Source: Candidatus Ratteibacteria bacterium (GTDB taxonomy: Bacteria; Ratteibacteria; UBA8468; B48-G9; DTJG01). Taken from it: a DNA stretch of 64,000 bases. Where the stretch lies: NCBI GenBank assembly GCA_041656495.1, contig JBBADJ010000004.1:84644-148643 (forward strand), read 5' to 3'. The position numbers and the translations under genes are program-made. Below, one piece after another: positions 2,510-54,477 of this stretch (the first letter of the stretch is position 1; every line of letters begins with the position of its first letter). The notes beneath the pieces are model-generated. The model searched no databases. It saw only the letters and a program-made list of their open reading frames with translations, and had not been told where the DNA came from.

Positions 2510-3394
2510 TCAATCATTGAACGTGGTAAATGGCTCCTCTGGTTTTTCAGGTGCAAATTTCGCACATTCCCGCAGAAAATGAAGAGACCTTTTTAATGTT
2601 GATTCAAGATCAGAAGAATCTTTGAAAAATTCTTCCAGCGAAAACCATCCGCGGTATCCCACCTTTTTTAATCCGAAAAAAACCTCTATCCAGTCCAAAA
2701 TTCCACATTCAAGGGCGCAGGATTTTGTATACCATTTTACCCGCGGAACCGGACCAGGATGAAAATCGCCCGAAGGAACAAAAAGAATGTTTTTCGCATG
2801 CACATACGAAAGATAGGGAAGAAGCATTTCTACGGCTCCCCGGGGACGGATCCCTCCTTCAACAACTCCATTGGCAGGGTCATAAATTATTCCCACATAC
2901 GCGGGATCAAGTCCATCCATTAAGTAACGAATAAGAGGAATAGAGGCAGAGATTCCGGAAGCATGGGTCTCCACCACATAGGTAATGCCATACTCTTTCC
3001 CTAATGGAAGGAGATTTTCCAGACCTTCTCTTGTTATCTTCACCATTTCAGGATACGATGCTCGTTGGTGAAGGGATTCATCAAAATTCCACGCAATCCA
3101 CGGAGGAGAAACCCGTAACATTTTTCCTCCATTAGGAGCAATCGCATCGCTCCATCGACGGATTACATCGCTCTTCCAAAGATGACCGGCATTTAGATAA
3201 CCAACGATGTCAAGGCCGTAATCATCACTTATTTTCCGCATCTCGCGAGAGGCTTCTGGTGCCTTGTCCAATGGCGGAAGTCCCCATTCAATTCCCTGGG
3301 CTCCAATTTTTTTTGCAAGAATCGCAATTTCTTCGTACGACATTCCCTTTAAGCTATTAGTATTAATAGCGTACTGAAAGCGATCTGCCGGCAT
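2510..3394 (-). CDS. sugar phosphate isomerase/epimerase (xylose-isomerase-like TIM barrel) family protein
   Basis: 294 aa with a TIM-barrel pattern typical of the AP-endonuclease-2/xylose-isomerase-like family. GGAGG ribosome-binding site before the ATG. Confidence 0.55.
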   Translation of the reverse strand: MPADRFQYAINTNSLKGMSYEEIAILAKKIGAQGIEWGLPPLDKAPEASREMRKISDDYGLDIVGYLNAGHLWKSDVIRRWSDAIAPNGGKMLRVSPPWIAWNFDESLHQRASYPEMVKITREGLENLLPLGKEYGITYVVETHASGISASIPLIRYLMDGLDPAYVGIIYDPANGVVEGGIRPRGAVEMLLPYLSYVHAKNILFVPSGDFHPGPVPRVKWYTKSCALECGILDWIEVFFGLKKVGYRGWFSLEEFFKDSSDLESTLKRSLHFLRECAKFAPEKPEEPFTTFND

Positions 3395-40115: not shown

Positions 40116-40558
40116 AAAAAGCATTGTATTGTTACGATCTGTGATGTTGTAATATTCCACTGTAAATCAGATATTGTTCTTCCCCTTTTTCAATACTCTT
40201 TTTGCACTCTTTTTATCTTGCAATCTTTTCTCTAACTGTAGGATTAAGACAGAAAGAACCAGTGATGGGCTTGCTAAAAAAACACGGGTTTAATCGCAAA
40301 AATCTTTCCTCTTACGTTTATTAAGAATATAAATCTCGCCTGCAAATGTAAAATTCGCTGCATTCTCTATATACAAAACAGGTATATCGGAAGGTAGTGG
40401 AACCAACCAGCATTGAGAATATGACTAAAGCCGAAATTGGTTCGATAGATAATACGGACATGAAATCTTTTTGTTATACGTTTAAAATAAAAAAAAAGTA
40501 TATCGAAAAAGCTTTAAGAAACTTAATAAACGTCCTTTTATTACAGAAAAAACTCATC

Positions 40559-43453
40559 TTAATCTACTACGATTTCATAAACATGTGTTCCGTACCCTTC
40601 AAAGTTATCAGTGAAAAATTTCCCTGAAGCGTGAAGATTTCTGTCCTCAAATAAAATCTTTATTGCCTTGATATTATTAATCAAAGTAAACTTTACTTTT
40701 ATTGGGTTAGTATCTCCATTTACAGCGATAAGGTATTTTTTTCCTTGATATTTTTTCAACATTGTATAAATTTGGTTGTTCTCTGGCAAGATAGAAATAT
40801 TTCCGCACATACTCCCGTTACTAAGCATTGGAGTAAGCTCATTAATTTCACCAATCGGCAAAACTTGTTTATATCTTTCAAGCTGTCCTCTCCAAAGATA
40901 AGGTTGAAATCCTTTTGCACCATTAACTAAGGCTAAATAGTACATAGCCCTTGATTCTATTTTGTTAGGGTATCTTTTTTCTCCATTTGGTCGTGGATGA
41001 GGGCCAAACTCTTCAGGCATAAACCAAACAGGTTTTTTATCTCCAGAAGCTTTCACGGCATGATTAACCATATCTGCCACTAAAGTAATCGGATGCTTTT
41101 CATGTTTATTTTCAGGATCTCTCTGCCTAAGAAAATCAGGATAGTTGTAAAACGGATACGCATCTGGAAAAAGAAAATCTGAACATCTGGCAAAAACAGG
41201 ATAGGCAAGAGGCCACCAATTAGTAACACCAATAGGTCTATAAGGATCTATCTTTTTAAGAAATTGATAAGCCTTATTGTAAATAACTATGTCACTACCT
41301 ATTTCCGGCTCATCAAAAACCCAACACAAAAGGGCTGGATGCGCCATCATGGCAACTACCCACTTGCCAATTATCTCATAATTGCACTCATACATTGCCG
41401 AACGAGGTATCTCCATGGAAACAAAAAGCCCGTTATCTCTTGCTTCATCCAAATATTTAATGGCATTTTCTAAATTCTGTTCATAACTGAGTTTCTTATC
41501 TTGGAAACCCCAGTGATGAATAAAATTTATTCCTAGTGTTTTAGCCCTAGCAACTTGAGTAGGATAAACTCCATAAAATCCGTTAGGAAAAAAAGGCTTA
41601 TTATTTACTAGAAGTATATTATCCTTTCTTACGTTAACCTTGGTTGAGATATCCTCGGTAAGAGTAAAGTACCATTCTTCTTTAACAAGGTTACCCACAT
41701 TATCTTTAATCTCTAAAATTACTTTATGCAAGCCTCTCTGTAATGGTTCTTTCGGAATGTACTTTATTCCCGTCGTAGTGATTTTCAAATCTTCACTAAT
41801 ATTTTTTCCATTAAGTGACAACTTAATGCTCTCTGTATCAATACCACTACCCTTTTGGTTATCTTGAAAATTGGCCGAAATGATTGGTCTGCTATTACTG
41901 GTAGTCCATGGAAATACATTCAAAATGTACGGAGGAGTTGTATCCTTTGCTTCATTCTTTAAGGTAAAGGAAAAAACAGGTGAATTTAACTCTTTTACCT
42001 CAAAAGAAGAACAAAGCGAAATTCGCCAATAATAAGTACCGTCAGATAATTCTTTCAATGGTCTATAACTATCAGAGAGTAAATCGTTTACTCGAAAAAC
42101 TTCTTCTTTGAAATTCTTATCCTTGGAATAGCACAATTGATAAGAAGGATAAATATCTATACCTGCCCATCTTTTATAGTCAGCCCAATTAATAACTCGG
42201 TTAGTCGGAATTGTCCTTTCCCATGAAAAAAGAGGAAAAGAGGTTTGAATTATACTCTTATTAGAAGGAGAAAGCAGACTTATAAAAAATTGAGACGCAA
42301 CTGCTGGTTCTATTCTAAAAAAACTATACCTTGCTGTAGTAGGTCCATTTGCAGCGTAAAGTCCCACTTCCTTAACTGAAAAAGAAGAAGCAAGCCCCAT
42401 GATAGTATAGTTTTCCCCATCTTCACTATACTTAAAAACAATCTTTTCCTTGTGTTTTTCTATCTGAAAATAGATCTCTGATTGAGTATAGACTACTGGC
42501 GGTAAAGTAGTGAACTTCCCTTCTTGAGGACCTCCACAATTTAGTTCATGCGCTGTCCCGTTATAAGTTCTACTAAACTTAAGCCAATTATTCTCATCAC
42601 TCCAGAAATATATACCGGTTTCTTCCCATGCTTTCTGAGGGAAATAGTCCTTTAGTGCCGTAGTTATAACAAATATATCTTCTTTAATTTCATAGGAAAG
42701 TTTAGGGGCGGTAATATTGTCTTTCCACATCCCTGCTTTTGGGGGTGCTTTTATGGTTAAAAACCCCTCTTTCTCTGTCAAACTATAACTACTCCCCTCA
42801 ATAAAGGAATGCTTCCACTTCCATTCGGACGCAAGAGAAAATTTTCTAAAAGTATCTTCAAAAATAAGACCTTTATCCAAACTTGCTGTTTCAGTATCAG
42901 TAAATTCCACATCATCAAACCAGACTGTGCCAGAAGAATCATAGATTTGTATTAAAATAGAAACTCCGGTTGTCCCAGCTGGAGGGCTTATTTCAGTGGT
43001 ACGAAAGGTCCAATTTTTACTTCCCTGCATATCCAGGTTAAATATTCTTCTGCCCTTTGGGGCATAATGAAAAAAAACGGTTGCTAATCCTCCGCTATAG
43101 CCTTTAAGATTATCACTCTTACACCAAAGGCTGAATTTGTATTTCTTCCCTTCTTCTATTAGAACATTATCGTAGATTAATGCCCCTCTCCCTTGTGTAG
43201 GAGATTCAATGCGCATAGATTGTTTCCCACCGTGATAAACTTCTTTGTCAATTGTAAAACATAAACCTGAAGTTCCGCGCCAATTATGAGTTCTCCAATT
43301 TTCAAGACGGCTTTCACTGTCACTTTTTTCAAATCCAGGATTTTTAATAAGGTTTTCTCCCGCATAAACAAAAGAAAAAAGAGTCTGAAAAAAAACCCCT
43401 GTTAACAACATTATTCTTGTTGTTCCAATAAATCTCTTTCCCTTTTTTTCCAT
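40559..43453 (-). CDS. secreted multidomain glycoside hydrolase (clan GH-A-like catalytic domain) with N-terminal CBM4/9-like module
   Basis: Signal peptide. The N-terminal ~170 aa resemble a CBM_4_9 beta-sandwich. The C-terminal ~350 aa look like a (beta/alpha)8 hydrolase with an EP acid/base motif. The GH family is not assigned. Confidence 0.45.
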   Translation of the reverse strand: MEKKGKRFIGTTRIMLLTGVFFQTLFSFVYAGENLIKNPGFEKSDSESRLENWRTHNWRGTSGLCFTIDKEVYHGGKQSMRIESPTQGRGALIYDNVLIEEGKKYKFSLWCKSDNLKGYSGGLATVFFHYAPKGRRIFNLDMQGSKNWTFRTTEISPPAGTTGVSILIQIYDSSGTVWFDDVEFTDTETASLDKGLIFEDTFRKFSLASEWKWKHSFIEGSSYSLTEKEGFLTIKAPPKAGMWKDNITAPKLSYEIKEDIFVITTALKDYFPQKAWEETGIYFWSDENNWLKFSRTYNGTAHELNCGGPQEGKFTTLPPVVYTQSEIYFQIEKHKEKIVFKYSEDGENYTIMGLASSFSVKEVGLYAANGPTTARYSFFRIEPAVASQFFISLLSPSNKSIIQTSFPLFSWERTIPTNRVINWADYKRWAGIDIYPSYQLCYSKDKNFKEEVFRVNDLLSDSYRPLKELSDGTYYWRISLCSSFEVKELNSPVFSFTLKNEAKDTTPPYILNVFPWTTSNSRPIISANFQDNQKGSGIDTESIKLSLNGKNISEDLKITTTGIKYIPKEPLQRGLHKVILEIKDNVGNLVKEEWYFTLTEDISTKVNVRKDNILLVNNKPFFPNGFYGVYPTQVARAKTLGINFIHHWGFQDKKLSYEQNLENAIKYLDEARDNGLFVSMEIPRSAMYECNYEIIGKWVVAMMAHPALLCWVFDEPEIGSDIVIYNKAYQFLKKIDPYRPIGVTNWWPLAYPVFARCSDFLFPDAYPFYNYPDFLRQRDPENKHEKHPITLVADMVNHAVKASGDKKPVWFMPEEFGPHPRPNGEKRYPNKIESRAMYYLALVNGAKGFQPYLWRGQLERYKQVLPIGEINELTPMLSNGSMCGNISILPENNQIYTMLKKYQGKKYLIAVNGDTNPIKVKFTLINNIKAIKILFEDRNLHASGKFFTDNFEGYGTHVYEIVVD

Positions 43454-43513
43454 TTGCACTGCTCCTTCCTTGATTTTTATTCTGAAAAAGATTTGAATAC
43501 ATAATAAAATGGC

Positions 43514-44143
43514 TTATCTCCAGATAATATCGCTTCCAAACATTTTACCGTCAATATTATAGTGGGTATATTTTTTCCAATCTGAATGTCCATCTATAAA
43601 AAGAATATTGTTCCCTCCGTTATGTGGTCCCTGTGCAACATTAACATATTCTGGATATGCAACATTGAAAAAATCAGTACAGCGCCAAGGATAGTTTCTG
43701 TTAGCAGGATCAATATCTGTCAAAAGCAACCATCTATGTGAATTGTTTACACGATCTATCTTTTTCCGAGATAACCAACGATTCATTGTATAGCCTACCT
43801 GATTTGAATATGAATGTTTTAATACAGACGGACATCGGAAAACAGTGTTTCTTTTTCCAGAAGAATCATGAGAGCCTACATATTTTCCAATATAGTTTCC
43901 CCAGTGATCAGCACCTTCTGTAGCAAGTGGTAAATACCCATTGTTTTCTTGAGTATACATAAAAAAAGCTAAATATAGTTGTTTTAAATTATTCACACAT
44001 ACAACGGTTCTTGCTCTTTCTCTTGCTCGTGAGAGCGCGGGCAGAAGCATTGCCGCTAAAATAGCAATGATCGAAATCACTACAAGGAATTCTATCAAGG
44101 TGAATCCATGTGATTTGCGAGAAATCACTTTTCCATTAAACAT
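43514..44143 (-). CDS. prepilin-type N-terminal cleavage/methylation domain protein with H-X9-DG motif
   Basis: [26 protein letters not shown]-terminus. C-terminal [13 protein letters not shown]. Confidence 0.85.
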
Positions 44144-44165
44144 TTTTCACCTCTAAACAGAATGG

Positions 44166-45260
44166 TTACTTATATAATTCGGTTTTTAATCTTAAATACG
44201 GAGAGAGCACTATTTGTGTACTCTTAACTTCCTTTTTTACTATTTTCTCCAATTCTTCAGCAGCAATTTTCCCCAATTCAACGAGAGGCTGTAGTACTTC
44301 GTGTATATATTGTTTTTCTTCATACTTTTGCTCAATTTCATCAAACGTGGCAATCTCTAATTTTGCTGGAAATAAACTTGGGTTCTGTTTTAACCATGGC
44401 AAGATCGCTTCTAAAAACTTCATTCCAGCAACAAGTATGGCTGAGGGTTGATAATCGTCATACATCTTTTCAAATTTCTTATTAAAACCTTCTTTGCTTG
44501 ATAAAAAATCCCAAGCCGCATAACTCTTACTTTCAATTTTTACCACTCCCTCACAGGGAAAATTTTCTTCTATGTTTCCACAGGCTTTCAAAAAACCTTT
44601 AAACCTCTGACGGTAACAAGAAATCTCTTCAATCAATCCAACAAAACCTATTTTTTCATGCCCCTTATTAATAAGGAAATGAGTTATTTCTTCCGCACCC
44701 TTTTCATGGTCGGTGCTAACATAATTAAATTGTTGATTTTTTTCTATTCGATTAATTATAACAATAGGATATCCGATATTCTGTAATTCTTTTATCACTT
44801 CAAAATACTCGGGAAGAGGAAAAATCCACACAATTGCTTCAATCTTAAAGTCTCTGCATTTGCTAAGAAGTTCAGATTTTTGATACGTATATGGAAAAAC
44901 ATGAATACTAATATTGTTCTTTCTAGCATGAATAAGACATCCAGAAATAATAGGGTGAATAAAGGAAACTTCTACATATTCCTGCGGTGGCTGAATAACA
45001 AGCATGTGTAACATTTCAGAGTTCTTGCTTTTATAATTTTTTCTTATAAAGGTACCTTTACCTTGCAATCTAATAACAGCAAATTCTTTTTCAAGTTCTA
45101 CAAGAGCCTTACGAACAGTAATATGGCTAACCGAAAAAAGAGAAGCCAACTGTCTTTCTGTTGGTAATTGTTCTCCTTCCATACCCTTTTCGATCAGTTC
45201 TAAAAGGTAATTCTTAATTTTTTCATAAAGAAAAATCTTACGAGTTGAAAGCTTTTCCAT
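44166..45260 (-). CDS. GntR-family transcriptional regulator with C-terminal periplasmic-binding-protein-like (LacI-type) sensor domain
   Basis: N-terminal GntR HTH (QLPTERQLASLFSVSHITVRKAL). About 360 aa. Confidence 0.65.
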   Translation of the reverse strand: MEKLSTRKIFLYEKIKNYLLELIEKGMEGEQLPTERQLASLFSVSHITVRKALVELEKEFAVIRLQGKGTFIRKNYKSKNSEMLHMLVIQPPQEYVEVSFIHPIISGCLIHARKNNISIHVFPYTYQKSELLSKCRDFKIEAIVWIFPLPEYFEVIKELQNIGYPIVIINRIEKNQQFNYVSTDHEKGAEEITHFLINKGHEKIGFVGLIEEISCYRQRFKGFLKACGNIEENFPCEGVVKIESKSYAAWDFLSSKEGFNKKFEKMYDDYQPSAILVAGMKFLEAILPWLKQNPSLFPAKLEIATFDEIEQKYEEKQYIHEVLQPLVELGKIAAEELEKIVKKEVKSTQIVLSPYLRLKTELYK

Positions 45261-45530
45261 ACTTATATTATATATTATAAATAAAAATAGTCAAGTGTTA
45301 AAATAGAAAGAACAAATGGATTTCGGTTCTGTCAAGATTTTTCTGTAACTTGCCTTCTGTTATGGTGTTATTGTGATAAATTCATGATCTCTGATCTTCT
45401 GTAGCTATGCCTTCTGGCGATACTTCTTTTTCAAGTAGTCTATAGTACCCCTTGTTGTAAGCCTATCCTACAAACATCCCTCTTCTCTATCCTTGATCTA
45501 TTCCCGTAATAGTGAAAACTTCCTCTCTTG

Positions 45531-46280
45531 TTACGGATAGACTGCAGGAGGATCTCTAGGAACTGTTTTATCAGGCCGTGGATCAATCCGTACTGTTCTG
45601 TCAATTACATAGCCGGTCTGGTAGGTGCCTGTCATCATATCATTCATTTCGCAGGGCCTCCACTCTACATGGCCGTCGCAGAAGAGAATATTGGTTCCTC
45701 CATTATGGTTTGCCGCGCTTACATCACTGCGAAGACGGGAAGGTTCCCGTATATAAAATGTCCAAGAGTAGCCGCTGAGAGAGACACAGGCAACAAGAAG
45801 CGTATTTCCCGGTTCTTTCAGATTGCCTGCTTTTATCCATGGATAGGTGTACCAATTAGTTGATACCTGGGGAAGCTGTACATTATATCCATAACTACCG
45901 AAAGATTGAGTAACAGATTGGTGAATTTTATCAGATCCGCACCAGAAGGGAAGATTGCTCCGTTTTGCTACAGGAACTTGATAAGCATAGGTGTAAGCTC
46001 CAAGATATTTTCCATTCCTTTTCACGCCCATTGCTTCGGCGATAAGGTCAAACCAGTAGAAAGCTTGATAATATCTTGAAGGAGGATAAAAATCATCATA
46101 ATCATTATTATAGACCGCGAATCCTATTGCCATCTGTTTCAGATTGCTCATACAGACTGCCTGACGCGCCTTTTCTCTTGCTCGTGAGAGCGCGGGCAGA
46201 AGCATTGCCGCTAAAATAGCAATAATCGCAATAACAACCAAGAGTTCTATTAAGGTAAAACCACTGCATTTTTTTTTCAT
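45531..46280 (-). CDS. prepilin-type N-terminal cleavage/methylation domain protein with H-X9-DG motif (paralogue)
   Basis: [26 protein letters not shown]-terminus. [13 protein letters not shown] near the C-terminus. Shares a 51-bp identical DNA stretch with 43514-44143. Confidence 0.85.
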
Positions 46281-47155
46281 TCATCCCTCCATAGATAGAA
46301 AGAAATTCTTTCTATACATTTATTTTAACTATTGTTTTGGCATCCCTCCTTGTCGCTCAAAAAATGGAAACAAATTATCTTCATCTTTATTTCCTAATAG
46401 AATCGCCTCGCACAATGCAATAGCTCAACTCCTTTCCTGCAGTTACAATCCCTGTTCTACAAGATCTTTTACATTTGCCGGACTTCGGCTCCAAAAGCAC
46501 AATCAAAAGCAATTCAGGAACAATGCTACTTTTCAGCAGAATGGTTATTATGCGAAAGAAAGGAACTCTTTCTATTCCGAAGATTTAGAAGATAATCTCT
46601 TTTTGCGACAACTCTTTTCATTTCTATAACCATTGAATCACCCGTAAAACAGGTCATATTATGGGAAAAAATGTTTTTCAAAGAGAATCTCTCTGACGAC
46701 ATACCATACTTCAAAGTAGTGGCAGTGATACCATGAGAAAAGAGAAGTTTTGTTTGTGGAAAAGTGTAAAAGGGTAGAAGAATAGAAGTGCGAAAAATCT
46801 GGAAACTATGAAAAAAGATAAAGGAAGTAGAGAAAGAGCGAAGCTGAATAACGGAAAAAGAGAATAATGCCTTAATAAAAGAAATACTTTGACTCTCTAT
46901 CTGTCTATGCATTGGCCTCATCCTTTCTGCTTTTATCAGAGGCTACTCGCAATGGCTTCCTTGATAAATTCACTGTACCATGCCAAGAGATTTTGTCAAA
47001 CACCACTGCCCTCATTAGAAATCTATAGGAAAATGTTCGCCTGTAAAAAGAAGCGAATATAAATAAGAGGAAATATCCATACGGATTCCTATTTTTTTAT
47101 CCGATCTGCAGGATGTCTTGTTTCTTATGAAATTCTTAAGAAAAACAGAGAAAAC

Positions 47156-47184
47156 TTGACAATACAATTTTTTGTTAGTATAAA
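47156..47184 (+). promoter_or_regulatory. sigma70-like promoter TTGACA-N17-TATAAA upstream of hicB
   Basis: Read directly from the sequence: TTGACA at 47156-47161 and TATAAA at 47179-47184. Confidence 0.35.
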
Positions 47185-47196
47185 ATAAGAAAAAAG

Positions 47197-47514
47197 GTGC
47201 GATGGGGAGATATGAAAAATAAATATACTTATTATTTTGCTATAATAATAGAGAAGGGAGAAGATGGATATATGTCTTATGCTCCTGGCGTGGGTGGCGT
47301 GTATGAAGAAGGGGCAACAAAAAAAGAAGCTATAGAAAACGCATACAAAGCAGCATGCGCTATTTTAGAAACTCGGATACAACGTAACGACCCACTTACT
47401 GAAAATAATAAATACCTTAGAGTTATAACTTCCGTACCAAACTATAAAGAAATTAATGAGTTTAGTAATATCATTCCTGATGGTTATATTTATACATCTT
47501 TTTGTACCCCCTAA
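47197..47514 (+). CDS. hicB: HicB-family antitoxin (UPF0150)
   Basis: Small protein with HicB-like pattern (YAPGVGGVYEEGATKKEAIENAYKA). Overlaps the downstream hicA-like gene. The start is either GTG 47197 or ATG 47212. Confidence 0.6.
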   Translation: MRWGDMKNKYTYYFAIIIEKGEDGYMSYAPGVGGVYEEGATKKEAIENAYKAACAILETRIQRNDPLTENNKYLRVITSVPNYKEINEFSNIIPDGYIYTSFCTP

Positions 47515-47804
47515 CTATGTTTCCTTTCATAAAAAAAGAATGGAGTAAATCTGAGTGGGGGCAATTAAAAAATCTTACCCCGAAAGATTTAATTACTCTT
47601 CTCAAGAAAGATACTCGTTGGGAATTGGTAAAAACAAAAGGTTCACGTTATATATTTTATAATGTAAAATTGGAAACACCTTACCAATATTTAGAAATTC
47701 ACCACCATAAAAAAGGGTATAGAAACAAAGGTTTACTGAAAAGTATTTTAGATCAATGGTGTTGCACGAAAAATGATTTTAAAAAATGGAATGTAATTAA
47801 ATAG
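47502..47804 (+). CDS. hicA: HicA-like (YcfA family) mRNA-interferase toxin
   Basis: YcfA/HicA pattern LLKKDTRWELVKTKGSRYIF...HHHK...LLKSIL. The canonical GSHH is replaced by GSRY. Confidence 0.5.
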   Translation: MYPLTMFPFIKKEWSKSEWGQLKNLTPKDLITLLKKDTRWELVKTKGSRYIFYNVKLETPYQYLEIHHHKKGYRNKGLLKSILDQWCCTKNDFKKWNVIK

Positions 47805-48002
47805 ATGTTTTACTTATAAAGATTTTGAACCTATTATGCTTGACAAGAGTTTCACAAACCTCATCAGATGAAAATACCTTGATTTTCCTTTCTCCTCTTA
47901 GTTGTTCTTTGGACAACCACTGCTGTAATAACTGCAATTATAGTCCTTTGGATTTTTATAAAATCTTTCTATTGGGATTCTCTACTTAATTAAACCAGTT
48001 TT

Positions 48003-48306
48003 GGGTGGGTGAGGAGATGTTGGCGCCCCTCACTTTCGGAACGTTCGGGGTCGGACACACGTTGGCAATCCTGCCTCTTCGTCGGGTTTCCTGACTTCGC
48101 TCCTTTCAAATCCCCTGAAGGAAATCTTTTTTGGGTCAATGGGAAGAAATAGTTCAAACCTCTAAGATAACCTGTCCGGAGTTTTTGAAGAAGATAAATA
48201 CATTTTGTACATCTATCACTTAAAAGAATAAAATCAGCTCGTGTAACCTCCTCCTCTTTGTAAACTATCCAATCTTCATACACTTACTTCCAATTTCTGT
48301 ATGAGA
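48003..48306 (+). repeat. att-like repeat copy A: tRNA-His 3'-end core (GGGTGGGTGAGGAGA) plus ~290 bp extension
   Basis: Direct repeat of copy B (49935-50183) with a ~65-bp insertion. Contains the hairpin GTGAGGAG / CCCCTCAC. Confidence 0.7.
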
Positions 48307-48522
48307 CTATCTCCTATGCTTAGAGAAAAAGTAGTAGTCTTATAGGTAAAAAAAACTAAAACCACCGAGCTATAAATGTTTCGCTATCTCTTCTTCTCAT
48401 TTTGCCCCCTTTAATACTTTTAAATTATTATACATCTAAAAGCCCTGTCCAGTTTTGAAGACAACTTCATTTTTTCGTCTAAATTTATTATGAGGTAATT
48501 CGTTTTCTTGACAAAAAGAATA

Positions 48523-49140
48523 ATGTCAGTTAAAATATTTAGCAATATGGCTAAATTACTGAATTGGATAAATGCTGAAAAAAAAATAAGAGATTGCGGA
48601 ATTACAATATTCTCTCCTGTTGATCTGAAACGAATATTTGGAGTTTCAGAAGTATCTGTCCGTTTTTTTCTAACGAGATATGTCAAAAAAGGAGCAATTG
48701 TTAAGTTGCGTAACAGCCTTTATACGTTAAATAACAATATCCCTTCAGAGGTTGAGATTGCGAACGCTCTTTATCGTCCGTCATATATTTCTCTTACTTA
48801 TGCACTTGCATATTACCATATTATTCCGGAAATGGTTTACTCTATTACATCAGTAACTACTCTTCCGACAGCAAGATTTAACGCTATAAACAAGGAATTT
48901 CGTTACCATAAAATAAAGGCATCTGTTTTTACTGGATATTCGCCTGTGAAAATTGAAGGCAAAACAATACTTTTTGCATGTAAAGAAAAAGCTTTTGTGG
49001 ATTATCTTTATTTTGTTCTAAGAAAATCCTATAAATTAAATGAAAGAATTGATATTTCTGGACTTGATAAAAAAGAATTAACTAAATATGTTAAATTGTT
49101 TAACAATAAAGGAATAAATGAATTAATTGAGAGGATATAA
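48523..49140 (+). CDS. AbiEi-family antitoxin/transcriptional regulator (type IV TA)
   Basis: About 200 aa with AbiEi-like architecture. Its stop overlaps the start of the AbiEii gene (ATAATG). The track ORF starts at a TTG at 48508. Confidence 0.5.
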   Translation: MSVKIFSNMAKLLNWINAEKKIRDCGITIFSPVDLKRIFGVSEVSVRFFLTRYVKKGAIVKLRNSLYTLNNNIPSEVEIANALYRPSYISLTYALAYYHIIPEMVYSITSVTTLPTARFNAINKEFRYHKIKASVFTGYSPVKIEGKTILFACKEKAFVDYLYFVLRKSYKLNERIDISGLDKKELTKYVKLFNNKGINELIERI

Positions 49141-49865
49141 TGTTAGGTAGAGAGATTATAAAGCAGATGGCTATTCAAAAAAAAACAACTGAGATAAATA
49201 TTGCTCGAGAATATATTCAACATCTATTTTTGTCTTTTTTTTATCAAGAAAGAAAGTCAGAACAGGTGCTTTTTAAGGGCGGAACTGCTTTGCGGATTGC
49301 TTACCTTAGCCCTCGTTTTTCTGAAGACCTTGATTTTTCAGGGTTTAATATAAAAATAGAAGAGTTAGAAACAATATTGATAAATATAATGAGCAAACTA
49401 GATAAAATGGGCGTTATTGTGGATTTATCAGAGAGTAAAAAAACTTCAGGAGGATATATTGGAGCTATCAATGCAGAATTTTCTGGGTATAAGACTCGGA
49501 TACTTCTTGAGGTTTCATTTCGTAAAAGAAAGACAAAAATTGCTGGAGAGCCAATGCTAATAGCGAGTGATTTTCTGCCTCCTTATACAATTTCTATACT
49601 TCCATCTAAAGACTTAATTGATGAAAAACTCTCAGCTGTGTTAACACGGGCAAAGGCGAGGGATTATTACGACCTTTATTTTCTTCTTCGTAAAGGTCTT
49701 ATTACAGTTGAACAGAGAAAGTGTCTTAATAGTATCAAAGAAAAAATAAAAAATGACAAAGTATATATAGAAAAAGAGCTAAAAGATTTTCTCCCTGCTG
49801 ACCAACAAAAACTTATTAGAAATTTTAATGAAATCTTGCTAAGAGAAGTTTCTCAATACGTGTAG
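49140..49865 (+). CDS. AbiEii/AbiGii-family nucleotidyltransferase toxin (DUF1814)
   Basis: Motifs GGTALRIAYLSPRFSEDLDF and RDYYDLYFLL. 241 aa. Confidence 0.7.
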   Translation: MLGREIIKQMAIQKKTTEINIAREYIQHLFLSFFYQERKSEQVLFKGGTALRIAYLSPRFSEDLDFSGFNIKIEELETILINIMSKLDKMGVIVDLSESKKTSGGYIGAINAEFSGYKTRILLEVSFRKRKTKIAGEPMLIASDFLPPYTISILPSKDLIDEKLSAVLTRAKARDYYDLYFLLRKGLITVEQRKCLNSIKEKIKNDKVYIEKELKDFLPADQQKLIRNFNEILLREVSQYV

Positions 49866-49934
49866 TATATGATATCAGTAAACTATATTTTATTTTGCCT
49901 TCCGCTCAAAGACTTGTCTTGTAAAAAAACAAAA

Positions 49935-50183
49935 GGGTGGGTGAGGGGATGTTGGCGCCCCTCACTTTCGAAGCGTTCGGGGTCGGACATCCGCTAGCAA
50001 TCCAGTGGATCAATGGGAGGAGGTAGTTCAAACCTCTAAGATAACCTGTTCGGAGTTTTTGAAGAAGATAAATACATTTTGTGCATCTATCACTTAAAAC
50101 TATAAAATCAGCTCGTGTAGCCTCCTCCTCTTTGTAAACTATCTAATCTCCAACCATTTATTTCCAATTTCTAAAGTATGAGT
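49935..50183 (+). repeat. att-like repeat copy B (tRNA-His 3'-end core plus extension)
   Basis: About 90% identical to copy A. Has the perfect 8-bp hairpin GTGAGGGG-N9-CCCCTCAC. Confidence 0.7.
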
Positions 50184-50208
50184 TTCTCTATTGCCCAATA
50201 TCTATCTT

Positions 50209-51663
50209 TTATTTTTCTGAAAGCCCCAGAACTTTTGCTATACCTTTACCATATGCAGGATCGGCTTTCATACAATTGGATATATGTCTCTCTTTTATCT
50301 CTGTTGGTATATCTCCCATATGTCGAGCGGTATTTTCAAATAAAGTTTGCTGTTGTTCTGGAGACATTAATCTAAAAAGTTTACCTGGTTGAGTGTAATA
50401 ATCATCATCGTCTTCTCTATAATTCCATCTATCAGCTTCTCCATAAATCTTTAGAGGTGGTTCTTTAAACTCAGGCTGCTCTTTCCATTTACCATAACTA
50501 TTTGGTTCATAGTGGAGTTTACTTCCAGCATTTCCATCTACTCGCATCAGCCCGTCTCTATGATAACTGTTGGTAGGAAATTTGGGTGCATTTACAGGAA
50601 TCAAATGATGGTTGACACCCAATCTGTATCTCTGTGCGTCACCATAAGAAAATAATCTTCCTTGAAGCATTCTATCAGGAGAAAAACCTATCCCGGGCAC
50701 AACATTTGCTGGATTAAAAGCTGATTGTTCAACTTCTGCAAAATAGTTTTCTGGATTTCTGTTAAGTTCAAAATAACCAACCTCTATAAGAGGAAAATCT
50801 TTCTTATACCATATTTTTGTAAGGTCAAACGGGTTGTAAGGCATATTTTGTGCCTCTTCTTCTGTCATAACCTGTATATACATTTTCCATTTAGGAAATT
50901 TGCAGTTACGTATATTTTCAAAAAGGTCTCTCTGGTTGCTCTCTCTATCTTTTGCAATTACTGCTTCAGCTTCGGCATCAGTCAGGTTTTTAATACCCTG
51001 TTGGCAGACAAGGTGAAACTTTACCCATACCCTACAATTATTTTCGTTTATCATACTGAATGTATGACTTCCAAATCCATGCATATGCCTGTAAGAATAA
51101 GGAATACCTCTATCGCTCATCGTTATGGTAATCTGGTGGAGAGCTTCAGGAAGCAGAGTCCAAAAATCCCAATTGTTCTTAGCGCTCCTCATATTAGTGT
51201 GCGGGTCTCGCTTTACAGCGTGGTTTAGGTCTATAAATTTTAAAGGGTCCCGGAAGAAGAATACAGGCGTATTATTCCCTACAAGATCCCAATTGCCTTC
51301 TTCGGTATAAAACTTCATTGCAAAACCTCTTATATCCCTTTCAGCGTCCGCTGCTCCTCGTTCTCCTGCTACGGTTGAAAAACGCACAAACATTTCTGTC
51401 TTTTTCCCAATTTGAGAGAAGATTTTCGCTTTTGTATATTTTGTTATATCATGAGTAACAGTGAAAGTGCCGTAAGCTCCAGAACCTTTAGCGTGCATAC
51501 GCCTTTCAGGAATTACTTCTCTATCAAAGTGCGCCATCTTTTCAAGAAACCAGACATCTTGCAGAAGCATCGGTCCACGTGGACCTGCTGTCATAGAGTC
51601 CTGGTTATTTGAAACAGGAGCACCTGCTGCAGTAGTCATTTTATTCATATCTTTTTTTTCCAT
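50209..51663 (-). CDS. katA: monofunctional heme catalase
   Basis: Full-length catalase similarity (RERIPERVVHAKG-like region, [18 protein letters not shown], distal His/Asn, proximal Tyr region). GGAGGA ribosome-binding site. Confidence 0.9.
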
Positions 51664-51777
51664 AAATTTCCTCCAATTTATTCTTTGAATTGAAATTCTC
51701 TATTTTATTTGTTATAGGATTCAATCTTATATCATATAAGAAATATTATATAATTCCAATTTTTACACGTAACCTTT

Positions 51778-52158
51778 TTATTTTTTATACTTATAAGTTT
51801 TTATTATAACAATATGAACTGTAACCGCAATTACAATAAAAATTAGAATAGATTTTAGCCATAAAGGTTTTATGATAAAAAAAACAGTAAACATTATGGT
51901 TGCCCATAACAGAATAATTGTATACAATTTCTGTTTTAATGGTATTCCTTTACCTTGTAAATAGTTTCTTATGTATTGCCCACAAAACTTATTACCTATC
52001 AACCAGTTATAAAAGTTTTCAGAACTGCGAGAGTAACAAAAAGCTGCAAGTAAAAGAAAGGGGGTGGTGGGAAGAATTGGAACAAAAATACCTATGATGC
52101 CTAAGATAACAGAGAGGGTTCCTGCTATTATTAGTAGTTTTTGCTTGACTTGTTTCAT
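51778..52158 (-). CDS. DUF454 (YbaN-like) inner-membrane protein
   Basis: Hallmark ILPTTPFLLLAAFCYSRSS. 126 aa with four transmembrane helices. Directly upstream of the catalase on the same strand. Confidence 0.65.
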   Translation of the reverse strand: MKQVKQKLLIIAGTLSVILGIIGIFVPILPTTPFLLLAAFCYSRSSENFYNWLIGNKFCGQYIRNYLQGKGIPLKQKLYTIILLWATIMFTVFFIIKPLWLKSILIFIVIAVTVHIVIIKTYKYKK

Positions 52159-52431
52159 CCAATAAAATTAACATTTCAAAGAAAGAAAAACAAATTTTAA
52201 AATGAGAAATTTCTTATAAAGGCAAGTATTATATCCCCCTACACCAATGAACTACTTAGAATCTTTATTCCGTAAAAATAATTCTGTTTTGCGGCGCTTC
52301 TCAGAAGAAAAAAGCCGTTATTGCCTTCACGTTCCAACTCAAAAATTGAACAACTTTTAAGATACGCAGGAAGAAGATGGTAACCTGGCTTTCAATTTAA
52401 CAAGTGATAGCATTAACACTAAAAACTGCCA

Positions 52432-52446
52432 GGGTGGGTGAGGGGA
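52432..52446 (+). repeat. att-like core copy C (GGGTGGGTGAGGGGA)
   Basis: Exact copy of the last 15 nt of the tRNA-His gene (as read on the + strand). Sits between the DUF454/catalase cassette and the next TA-like pair. Confidence 0.6.
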
Positions 52447-52755
52447 TTGTGCGGCTGAAATACGCTACGAACGGTCTCCGCTTATAAGAGAAGTGTCTTT
52501 AGTCGGATAGAACCATTGTTCGCCCCCCTACCCCTTCAAGAAGATTACAAAACTGGGTCATTGGAGGGATAAAACTCAGAAGATACTTCTTACTGAATCT
52601 AACTTTAAAAAAAACCTAAACAGATTACCTTTTCTAACACCTTAAACTGGTTTACAACCCATAACCTGCCTGCCCTTTCTACGCATCTATTTTTGTCTAA
52701 AAAAACGTTGATAAAGTGTTACCTATATACCCATATACCCAACTGATACATATAC

Positions 52756-52784
52756 TTGGCTTATACAACAATGTTTGGTATAAT
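52756..52784 (+). promoter_or_regulatory. promoter TTGGCT-N17-TGgTATAAT (extended -10)
   Basis: Read directly from the sequence. Followed by an AGGAGG Shine-Dalgarno at 52796-52801. Confidence 0.35.
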
Positions 52785-52788
52785 ACTT

Positions 52789-53196
52789 ATGAAACAGGAG
52801 GTTATCTTGAGCATAGTAATCAAAACAATAGGGAAACAACAATATGCATATCAGGCTTATCGTAATGGGAACAGGATAGTGCAGAAATATCTGGGAAATA
52901 TTGCCGACAATAAGGTGAAAAAAATGCTGGAAGAATTAAAAAGAACGAATCAAGTGCAACAACGATTCTATCCCTTATTCTGGGACGTAGAACCTAACAA
53001 GATTAACATTCGCAAAAATGCCAGATATATTATTGAGCGTGTCCTGGAAGTGGGAGACACAGCCGCATTTCAATGGATACAAAATATGTATCCAACGCGT
53101 TTGATTCTGGATACATGCAACACAAGCCGAAAAATATCCGAAAAATCAAGAATATTCTGGAAAATCTGGCTGGGGGAAATGTCCAATGCACAATGA
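52789..53196 (+). CDS. small protein, putative antitoxin/regulator partner of the downstream nucleotidyltransferase
   Basis: Overlaps the downstream AbiEii-like gene by 11 nt. No HTH recognised. The start is uncertain: ATG 52789, or TTG 52807 after the SD. Confidence 0.35.
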   Translation: MKQEVILSIVIKTIGKQQYAYQAYRNGNRIVQKYLGNIADNKVKKMLEELKRTNQVQQRFYPLFWDVEPNKINIRKNARYIIERVLEVGDTAAFQWIQNMYPTRLILDTCNTSRKISEKSRIFWKIWLGEMSNAQ

Positions 53197-53839
53197 ATGT
53201 TTTCCAAAAAAAGGTATAGACGTTTTAAAACGATTGAAACCTATTATCAAGACACGCCGTTTCATTTTAGCCGGTGAAACCGCCGCCGCAATACAGATTG
53301 GACATAGGATATCTGAAGATCTTGATTTCTTTGCCGCTCAGTCGTTTTCAACCGATGAAATTCTCAATGAAATTAAACAACAGAAACTTAATTTTTCACT
53401 TCTACAGGAAGAACAGAATACATTGACAAGCATTATAGAAAATACCAAGGTATCTCTATTTTGCTACCCCTACCCTTTCATTGAGAAATACGTCAGTTGG
53501 CAAGGCATTTCAGTTGCCAGTCTTACGGATATCGCCTCCATGAAGGTTATTGCCATAAGCCAACGAGGGGCGAAAAGAGATTTTGTTGATATGTATTTTA
53601 TTCTACGTTCAATACCATTTTGGAGAATTGCCGATAATATGATTCAACGCTTTGGAACTGCCAGAATCAACCCCGTGCATATTGGTAAATCGTTGGTATA
53701 CTTTCATGATGCTGAAGTTGACCCAGACCCTCATTACTGTTTGGGATACGAAACAAATTGGCAAGCTATCAAAGTATTTTTCATAAACCATGTTCAGCAA
53801 TTGGTAATAGATTTGCAGAGAGCAAAAGAAACAGGATAA
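53186..53839 (+). CDS. AbiEii-like nucleotidyltransferase (short form)
   Basis: Shares GxTAxxxxxxxRxSEDLDFF and (K/A)RDF(V/Y)DMYF(I/L)L motifs with the 49140-49865 product. Confidence 0.55.
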   Translation: MHNECFPKKGIDVLKRLKPIIKTRRFILAGETAAAIQIGHRISEDLDFFAAQSFSTDEILNEIKQQKLNFSLLQEEQNTLTSIIENTKVSLFCYPYPFIEKYVSWQGISVASLTDIASMKVIAISQRGAKRDFVDMYFILRSIPFWRIADNMIQRFGTARINPVHIGKSLVYFHDAEVDPDPHYCLGYETNWQAIKVFFINHVQQLVIDLQRAKETG

Positions 53840-53909
53840 CTGTTTATATCAAAACGTAATGTTCCAACTAAATCCTCCAGAAATAAGTGCACCGCAACGA
53901 TTTCAGGCT

Positions 53910-54296
53910 GGGTGGGTGAGGGGATGTTGGCGCCCTCGCTTCCCACTACAGCTCGGGTCGGCCACTCGCTGGCAATCCTGCCTCTTCGTCGGATTGCCTG
54001 ACTTCGCTCAATTCAAATCCCCTGAAGGAAAACTTTTTGGGTGGGTGAGGGGATGTTGGCGCCTTCGCCTTTCGATACGGCTCAGGTCGGCCACTCGCTG
54101 GCAATCCTGCCTCTTCGTCGGATTGCCTGACTTCGCTCAATTCAAATCCCCTGAAGGAAAACTTTTTGGGTGGGTGAGGGGATGTTGGCGCCCCTCACTT
54201 TCGGAACGTTCGGGGTCGGCCATCCGCGAAGATTGCTGCGCTCACTCGCAATCTTTCCACTTCGCTCCTTTCAAATCCCCTGAAGGAAAACTTTTT
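53910..54296 (+). repeat. three tandem 129-bp repeat units, each beginning with the tRNA-His 3'-terminal 15-16 nt
   Basis: Unit starts at 53910, 54039 and 54168. Each ends with TTCAAATCCCCTGAAGGAAAACTTTTTG. The first third of each unit is variable. Confidence 0.8.
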
Positions 54297-54370
54297 GGGT
54301 GGGTGAGGGGATTTGAACCCCCGACATCCAGAGCCACAGTCTGGCGCTCTGCCCCTGAGCTACACCCACC
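54297..54370 (-). tRNA. tRNA-His (anticodon GUG) with encoded G-1
   Basis: Manual fold of the reverse complement: acceptor GUGGGUG/CACCCAC with G-1:C73, D-stem GCUC/GAGC, anticodon stem CCAGA/UCUGG, loop CUGUGGC (GUG), T-arm GGGGG-UUCAAAU-CCCCU. Confidence 0.85.
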
Positions 54371-54477
54371 ATATAACTGTAAACTACTATATCTTACCTT
54401 GTTTCAGTGATTTGTAAAGATACTACTGTGTTCTAAGAAAAAACTCTTCTCTGCAAGAAAAAAATGAAGTTATGATA

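Follow-up and report, generated by a model that had tools for sequence, protein, structure and literature searches.

Why is the 3' end of one tRNA gene repeated six more times over 6.3 kb, between small cassettes of defense and stress genes, and what put those cassettes there? The question is raised by the window analyzed here, a whole stretch of 64,000 nucleotides from a Candidatus Ratteibacteria genome (contig JBBADJ010000004.1), in which a tRNA-His gene borders an array of cassettes (48003 to 54370). The original prediction had read the extra tRNA ends as the scars of serial cassette integration. They prove instead to be the 3' ends of a larger structured module, about 110 to 175 nt long, which in Ratteibacteria follows tRNA-His directly on its 3' side, in one or more copies that share its orientation. 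With confidence only a little better than even, we read the locus as a tRNA-His-anchored accretion array of integrase-less islets, in which the modules are core-bearing recombination units.

The array and its tRNA-His anchor

The 15-mer GGGTGGGTGAGGGGA occurs exactly on the plus strand at 49935, 52432, 53910, 54039, 54168, and 54297, and the copy at 48003, GGGTGGGTGAGGAGA, differs from it by a single mismatch. The copy at 54297 is the 3' end of tRNA-His (GTG) itself (54297 to 54369, minus strand), which stands intact beside the array. Seven copies in the window compare with 0.08 expected from shuffles, so the predicted copies are not chance matches. The core is defined here as the last 16 nt of tRNA-His, ATCCCCTCACCCACCC in the tRNA sense. 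ENA contig ERZ27247346:k141_1418383 matches the window at 100% identity, and the genes upstream of tRNA-His encode a PALP dehydratase and an amidohydrolase. Outward from the tRNA, the order is U1, U2, U3; cargo A; U4; cargo B; the truncated U5; cargo C; U6; and a HicAB-like pair. The features are as follows; module scores are those of a covariance model built from the window units.

54391 to 54418, minus strand: promoter-like site TTTACA-16-TAAGAT upstream of tRNA-His (consensus scan only)
54297 to 54369, minus strand: tRNA-His (GTG), the anchor (ARAGORN; 66.8 bits with the Rfam tRNA model)
54168 to 54296, minus strand: U1, with a 16-nt spacer, closing helix, hairpin A (AAGATTGC/GCAATCTT), hairpin B, and core (129-bp period by TRF; 137.7 bits)
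54039 to 54167, minus strand: U2, hairpin A GGCAATCC/GGATTGCC (tandem repeat; 140.5 bits)
53910 to 54038, minus strand: U3, hairpin B loop GTAGTGGGA, as in other species (tandem repeat; 140.9 bits)
52551 to 53909: cargo A, an AbiEii-like nucleotidyltransferase (53186 to 53839, plus) and its DUF6922 partner (52756 to 53196, plus) (Pfam)
52432 to 52550, minus strand: U4, a divergent module with a perfect core at its end (16.5 bits, E 0.04)
50006 to 52431: cargo B, DUF454/YbaN (51778 to 52158, minus), catalase (50209 to 51663, minus), and repeat D3 (50006 to 50172) (Pfam)
49935 to 50005, minus strand: U5, the 3' 70 nt of a module with its core, the 5' part deleted (52.3 bits)
48132 to 49934: cargo C, AbiEi (48508 to 49140, plus), AbiEii (49140 to 49865, plus), and repeat D3 (48132 to 48298) (Pfam)
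48003 to 48131, minus strand: U6, the most distal full module, its core with one mismatch (ATCTCC...) (123.9 bits)
47197 to 47804, plus strand: HicB-like and HicA-like pair beyond the last core (Pfam scores just below the curated cutoffs)
40121 to 54296: compositionally atypical zone, GC 33 to 38% versus 41 to 45%, tetranucleotide distance more than 2 standard deviations

Five of the six extra copies close a unit of about 129 nt (tRNA sense) rather than standing as bare scars, and the three nearest the tRNA, U1 to U3 (53910 to 54296), form a cargo-free 129-bp tandem repeat with a perfect period. Together with the presence of the same conserved module without cassettes in other genomes, described below, this removes the view of the copies as scars left by the three cassettes. 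U6 is a mosaic, U2-like in its 5' half and U1-like in its 3' half, and the 3' tail of U4 recurs in two contigs of a related species, L061 and L062. A covariance-model scan found no module copies elsewhere in the 64 kb, and no further core copy was found beyond the one at 48003, near the HicB/HicA-like pair. U5 and U6 are each preceded by D3, a 167-nt repeat whose two copies are 91% identical. A coding origin of D3, for example as an integrase fragment (ORF 47990 to 48283), was rejected, as a stop breaks the frame in the second copy and Pfam gives no match; the D3-related sequence of L061, read by eye, also appears to carry a stop.

Two other interpretations of the repeats were set aside. A public gene call, a 183-aa ORF at 53859 to 54410 on the plus strand (11025 to 11576 in L001), spans the three tandem modules and the antisense tRNA; it is almost certainly a spurious product of the array. 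A primer-binding site, in which the plus strand would be complementary to the mature tRNA 3' end, was rejected because the repeat fits the gene sequence, CACCCACCC followed by A or T, and not the CCA-tailed mature end.

Module anatomy and fold

All modules start with a T-rich spacer of 15 to 17 nt followed by GGGGATTTGAA..GAGCGAAG, and the 5' motif GGGGATTTGAA is the reverse complement of the tRNA-His T-loop/T-stem, TTCAAATCCCC. Hairpin A has a conserved loop and a covarying stem, and hairpin B has covarying stems and a tandem G.A internal loop. At the 3' end, hairpin B is followed by GGCGCCAA(C)ATCCCCTCACCCACCC, the copy of the tRNA 3' end extending over 16 to 19 nt. Because each module ends in this copy, every module repeats the tRNA attachment core.

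The modules share a fold consisting of a closing helix, GGGGATTTG/CAAATCCCC, hairpins A and B, and a free CACCCACCC tail, thus a three-way or larger junction, into which seven of nine variants fold independently; RNAalifold recovers the closing helix and hairpin B. In a model-based alignment of 15 distinct modules, 90.2% of the cells were paired and both-side compensatory changes occurred in 10 of 25 pairs. The covariation score was 0.232, compared with 0.101 in shuffles (0/500) and 0.03 to 0.08 for slid partners. Hairpin B was 100% paired with four covarying pairs, and hairpin A had six covarying pairs; the closing helix is uninformative by covariation because it never varies among modules. 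The covarying hairpins argue for a function of the module as a folded single strand. Non-Watson-Crick stem pairs are mostly G.T on the tRNA-sense strand, which favors that strand as the folded one. Such a bias would fit cotranscription with the tRNA as well as a defined DNA strand. Rfam 15, searched also at permissive thresholds, returned only tRNA matches, the best others having E values of 1.5 or more and lying far below gathering scores.

The hairpin B loop GTAGTGGGA, found for example in U3 (53946 to 53954) and also in the L015, L028, L033, and L039 modules, contains GTGGG. This string equals tRNA-His nucleotides 1 to 5 and is complementary to CCCAC in the free tail of the module, making a pseudoknot or a duplex mimic between loop and tail possible. 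The U1, U2, U5, U6, and L009 modules have GT(T/A)(T/C)CGAAA-type loops instead, and in U1, U5, U6, and L009 GTGAGGGG can pair with CCCCTCAC.

The module across Ratteibacteria

A search with a 22-nt module motif led to JGI and ENA contigs of another Ratteibacteria species, from which the SDR gene flanking tRNA-His was followed to five more genome types. At least six other Ratteibacteria genome types carry the module after tRNA-His, usually without cassettes, and nearly all of the genomes reached in this way have one to three modules of 125, 126, 127, or 192 nt in the same orientation. In L009, whose flank is 90% identical to that of the window, tRNA-His is followed by exactly one module and then by unrelated DNA. 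Two species share a cargo-free synteny of I42-inhibitor gene, tRNA-His, module or modules, and LemA. Module bodies of equal length are 81 to 90% identical between species whose SDR genes are about 72% identical at the nucleotide level; adjacent coding genes, at 65 to 76%, fall below the modules, as does intergenic DNA. Between U2 of the window and the L009 module, about 70 nt are without a difference, though the flank is 90% identical. The module is thus a lineage feature, under selection or spreading horizontally, and not a by-product of the cassettes in this window.

The module is absent right after tRNA-His in the close relatives L038 (strain level), L035, and L036. The SDR protein of L038 (ERZ27245470) is identical to that of L037 and L039, and the DNA is unrelated from the tRNA end onward: a TPR-protein gene of higher GC follows tRNA-His directly, and the first 1.6 kb are free of modules. 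Either another element inserted at the tRNA end of L038, or the contig is chimeric. Modules at the end of an array are often truncated (L015, L033), L018 carries one extra full module relative to L015, and the distal cores are degenerate in U6 and L009. As many of the retrieved public contigs end inside the array, it evidently breaks assemblies. Synteny could not be followed through PALP homologs, the lineage being sparse: identity falls directly from 93% to 57%, and the 57% homolog has no tRNA-His nearby.

In L033 (ERZ27247713), one full module and a remnant of about 28 nt of a second are followed by a gene about 0.6 kb downstream of the tRNA-His module. From its N-terminal sequence, this gene appears to encode a type I restriction-modification HsdM-like methyltransferase, and if so, it would be another defense gene at the same hotspot in a different species.

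Cassettes and their junctions

Pfam searches bore out the predicted gene content of the three cassettes, namely, AbiEi/AbiEii, DUF454 with catalase, and an AbiEii-like protein with its partner (DUF6922). All three cargos begin exactly at the 3' edge of a core, right after ...CACCCACCC, and perfect cores of 16 to 17 nt stand at the left edge of three of three. Cargo A, 1.36 kb long, starts in the tRNA sense right after core C3 and ends in ...CCAATGACCC. The right ends of all three share the motif CCA(A/T)TGA(C/T)CC just before the next spacer. It is possibly a core in degenerate form, and the first perfect core after it belongs to the module that follows. The gene pair of cargo B is 75% identical at the nucleotide level to an ordinary chromosomal DUF454-catalase pair in L057, the homology stopping at the gene boundaries, and no tRNA, core, or module was found near the L057 pair. 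The HicB/HicA-like pair is possibly an older cargo without a recognizable distal core. The gene calls of strain L055 include just the HicB-like member of the pair there, and this region is the least conserved between L055 and the window (96.6% identity).

Type III toxin-antitoxin repeats of the ToxI kind are tandem units of about 34 to 40 nt that lie immediately upstream of the toxin gene and are cotranscribed with it. The repeats here are 129 nt long, are antisense-compatible with the AbiEii-like gene, and lie on its downstream side, and the module also occurs in other genomes without a toxin gene close by; a ToxI-like reading was therefore ruled out. Both AbiEii-family genes stop 69 to 70 nt before the next plus-strand core (49866 to 49934 and 53840 to 53909). 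The intervening sequences are unrelated, and we treat the spacing as a coincidence rather than a meaningful link. DUF1814/MenT-family toxins have been reported to modify tRNA acceptor ends (PMC7450476, PMC10435456); a functional link between AbiEii-family toxins and the copy of the tRNA-His acceptor 3' strand in the modules would be pure speculation.

Variation among strains and alleles

Cassettes vary in presence among relatives, as the original prediction had anticipated. L055 and L056, which share about 99% identity with the window, match it in their three cassettes and in the order of these, and carry four tRNA-proximal modules instead of three. The extra module combines an identical 113-nt body with a different 16-nt spacer, and because the spacer differs while the body is identical, simple slippage is an unlikely origin. 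In L061, L062, and L063, which belong to the species of L009, cargo A is present and 95.8% identical to the window copy; in L009 it is absent. Its left junction, core|AG(C/T)CTGAAATCG, is the same in the window and in L062/L061, and its neighbors differ: on the left U3 in the window versus a composite module X, and on the right U4 versus a U1-type module (unit_b). The single module of L009 equals a fusion of two L062 modules, unit_a supplying the 5' part and unit_b the 3' part, and because the crossover lies in the module body, ordinary homologous recombination suffices to explain L062 versus L009. L009 and L063 come from the same sample (ERZ27249272), so occupied and empty alleles coexist in one population. 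Cassette boundaries were expected to coincide with the cores in other genomes; this held for the left ends of the cargos and not for the resolved polymorphism, which crosses over in the module body rather than in the 15-mer.

A composite module of 195 nt (L062 reverse complement 546 to 740; L061 reverse complement 1 to 120) consists of a U1-type body fused at GGCGCCAAC to a U4-type 3' tail, which shows recombination between modules at the conserved GGCGCC or close to it. L061 also has a D3-like element (reverse complement 3081 to 3229), 76% identical to the window D3, downstream of the Amidohydro_2 gene that follows its array. After this element comes a second copy of the sequence of about 90 nt that follows the degenerate core of L009. 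The arrangement suggests that the Amidohydro_2 gene of this species is itself a cassette.

Composition and the search for a recombinase

The composition scan was atypical from the tRNA-His 3' end outward, and together with the cargo starts at core edges it sustains the idea of an accretion hotspot. The atypical zone has a sharp edge at tRNA-His and runs past the last core to about 40.1 kb. As predicted, no integrase, excisionase, or transposase domain was found in the 6.3 kb; Pfam gave no such domain in any ORF of 47 to 54.4 kb and no recombinase domain in the ORFs of 150 aa or more that were tested over the 64 kb. A few ORFs lacked a Pfam match, and two large ORFs fell outside the test.

Searches for a mobile parent were likewise negative. 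The module was not found in viral contigs, GenBank phages, or PLSDB plasmids, and in the viral contigs the core 16-mer gave chance matches and one phage tRNA-His only. No integrase-bearing element using the same site was found in the viral contigs, phages, or plasmids. An exact-pattern scan of species-representative genomes for the module/core junction yielded only chance coding matches, in high-GC Bacteroidota and Anaerolineae metagenome-assembled genomes.

Competing explanations

In the accretion reading that we favor, small islets without an integrase of their own (one or two genes, such as toxin-antitoxin or abortive-infection pairs or catalase) would have inserted exactly at the core 3' edge, the agent being a site-specific recombinase encoded elsewhere and acting in trans. 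Recombination between modules would then delete, duplicate, and reshuffle cargo and modules. The cargo junctions at core edges, the differing module neighbors, the tRNA-proximal change in copy number, and the captured chromosomal genes all fit trans-supplied site-specific insertion. The recombinase, the direction of events, and the choice between a folded single-stranded DNA site and an RNA role are elements that we infer. Several observations weigh against accretion. Because no recombinase was found, site-specific insertion itself has to be inferred; the right ends of the cargos have only a weak core-like motif, not a perfect repeat; and the L062/L009 crossover fell in a 41-nt shared module body, left of the core variants, and not in the 16-nt core. 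Modules also persist without cargo, syntenic and more conserved than adjacent genes, in several species, a pattern that fits a resident functional (RNA) gene as well as a recombination site. Finally, classical tyrosine-integrase arm sites are not covarying hairpins. A more particular proposal, which we consider quite unlikely, is that the modules represent a novel type of recombination site, folded from a single strand, with the tRNA gene as an attI-like entry and the recombinase elsewhere, forming a tRNA-anchored integron-like platform. The GGGGATTTG/CAAATCCCC pairing, with the GUGGG loop and the CCCAC tail, would then rebuild the duplex of the tRNA-His gene end, and the platform would take up genes for defense and stress, its new units joining the tRNA-proximal block.

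Unlikely, though with a real claim to consideration, is that the module is primarily a noncoding RNA gene, a tRNA-His trailer RNA, cotranscribed and folded as a three-way junction, with the acceptor 3' strand as its 3' tail; tandem copies would be paralogs, and the cassettes unrelated islets that target the contained core or recombine through it. The module abuts the tRNA in the same orientation in every genome, with a promoter-like site upstream and no terminator-like site or intrinsic terminator found by scan between tRNA-His and the modules. The compensatory changes (10 of 25 pairs; 0.232 versus 0.101 in shuffles), the common fold of seven of nine variants with G.T pairs on the tRNA-sense strand, a module identity of 0.81 to 0.90 versus 0.65 to 0.76 for adjacent coding genes, and the I42 - tRNA-His - module - LemA synteny of two cargo-free species speak for an RNA, as does the hairpin B loop, GUAGUGGGA, whose GUGGG equals tRNA-His nucleotides 1 to 5 and is complementary to the tail. 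However, no Rfam family matches; right after tRNA-His, the module is missing in L038, L035, and L036; U5 and U6 are separated from the tRNA by 4 to 6 kb and stand behind antisense genes; modules at the array end are often truncated (L015, L033); and what the closing helix copies is the tRNA gene duplex, not a tRNA structure. Nor does an RNA gene by itself explain why cargos start exactly at core edges. Integration classically leaves direct repeats of a tRNA 3' end behind, and the repeats could accordingly be decaying attR-side remnants of past prophages or integrative and conjugative elements (ICEs) at tRNA-His, amplified by slippage or unequal crossing-over and now functionless. Unequal crossing-over could produce the extra full module of L018 relative to L015, and the distal cores of U6 and L009 are degenerate. 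We nevertheless judge this improbable: both hairpins carry compensatory changes, conservation exceeds that of neighboring coding DNA between species with SDR genes about 72% identical, some 70 nt are identical between U2 and the L009 module against a flank of 90%, and no phage, plasmid, or viral contig searched has the module. A true integron cassette array without an integrase (a cluster of attC sites lacking integron-integrases, CALIN), with the modules as attC sites for an IntI-type integrase, would account for one- or two-gene cassettes separated by structured repeats of attC-like length, for a structure conserved while the stem sequence varies, and for the lack of an integrase nearby. It is very improbable, as the module ends are GGGGATTTG...CAAATCCCC and not the RYYYAAC...GTTRRRY inverse-core/core pair, the core is 16 to 19 nt and identical to the tRNA end rather than 7 bp, the fold is multibranched rather than a single bulged hairpin, two of three cargos are antisense to the module, and no IntI was found, the genes upstream of the tRNA being the PALP dehydratase and the amidohydrolase. 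The predicted hotspot without a recombinase in cis thus stands, and its integron-like character does not, at least as regards the attC consensus.

Relation to known systems

The original prediction had called this kind of hotspot undescribed for tRNA-His in this kind of organism; the general kind is in fact known, its nearest described counterpart being the ssrA islands of Dehalococcoides. Downstream of the single ssrA gene, Dehalococcoides genomes carry tandem islands bounded by direct repeats of about 20 bp from the t(m)RNA 3' end, with the insertion point in the T-loop region and, immediately upstream of every repeat, a conserved motif not matching the RNA gene (McMurdie et al. 2011; PMC3146451). 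Fifteen of these islands have no integration module and were proposed to be cis-mobilizable elements (CIMEs), and the region is low in GC and variable among strains (PMC3146451). The present array resembles them in its tandem islands at t(m)RNA 3'-end repeats, in the motif upstream of the repeat, and in the many islands without an integration module. In Dehalococcoides, however, many islands have a serine-recombinase integration module in cis, where none is seen here; the motif is 15 bp, and not a covarying structure of 110 to 175 nt that also occurs alone, in tandem, and in synteny across species; and the cargos here, unlike those islands, are only 1.4 to 2.5 kb.

CIMEs of the ICESt1 family (Pavlovic et al. 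2004) are characterized, in the account of them cited in PMC3146451 and reviewed in PMC5704250, as att-flanked and without recombination or transfer functions. The same account has them pile up in tandem at one attachment site, with the recombinase supplied in trans. Flanking cores and a lack of mobility genes are seen here, and any att function of the cores is putative. CIMEs derive from recognizable ICEs or integrative mobilizable elements that share the site, whereas no such parent is known here, and the att-bearing unit here is itself a structured, conserved module.

Integron and CALIN arrays consist of one- or two-gene cassettes with attC sites of 57 to 141 nt that are conserved in structure rather than in sequence. 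New cassettes are thought to enter at one end, integrase-less arrays exist, and toxin-antitoxin cassettes are common. Such arrays are the subject of the IntegronFinder work of Cury et al. (2016) and of the attC literature. The module differs in having no attC R''/R' consensus, a long tRNA-identical core, a multibranched fold, a tRNA anchor rather than attI, and no IntI. Integration or module exchange without an element-encoded recombinase is also practiced by CTXphi-type integrative mobile elements exploiting Xer and by the pdif modules of Acinetobacter, which rely on XerCD and 28-bp dif-like sites; the half-sites of CTXphi are inverted, lie about 90 nt apart, and mimic the duplex target by folding. 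The predicted GGGGATTTG/CAAATCCCC pairing would similarly recreate the duplex of the tRNA gene end, but nothing dif-like is present here, and single-stranded recombination is putative. Plant viruses have tRNA-like structures with pseudoknotted acceptor stems, and small RNAs derive from tRNA 3' external transcribed spacers. Like these, the module follows right after a tRNA, its tail is identical to the acceptor 3' strand, and loop-tail pairing could give a pseudoknotted acceptor-like stem. Unlike them, it does not mimic the G-1 identity element, it lacks the loop-tail complementarity in most modules of the window lineage, and a transcribed or aminoacylated form of it would be hypothetical.

Tandem integrase-less islets at t(m)RNA genes are thus familiar, and it has been unclear so far what keeps their sites competent for recombination. 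What sets this locus apart is that the attachment core is embedded in a conserved, covarying, reiterated module of 110 to 175 nt, kept across a candidate phylum even when free of cargo, and with no visible recombinase. The module could serve gene capture in a poorly known lineage, as a dedicated, expandable landing pad (or attC-like site), or it could be an undescribed tRNA-linked structured RNA exploited by mobile DNA. It is in either case a concrete, searchable marker, and with the covariance model complete genomes can be screened for such hotspots and for the missing recombinase. In practical terms, the array breaks many of the retrieved public assemblies, besides producing the spurious 183-aa call.

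Neighboring low-GC DNA

Beyond the array, the 5.2 kb of low-GC DNA at 40121 to 45324 of the window is replaced in the 99%-identical L055 (16382 to 17819) by 1.4 kb with a TylF-type methyltransferase. No core copies stand at the edges of this replacement. The genes of the window segment encode a GntR/LacI-type regulator, a DUF1559 prepilin-like protein, and a 966-aa CBM/GH-like protein.

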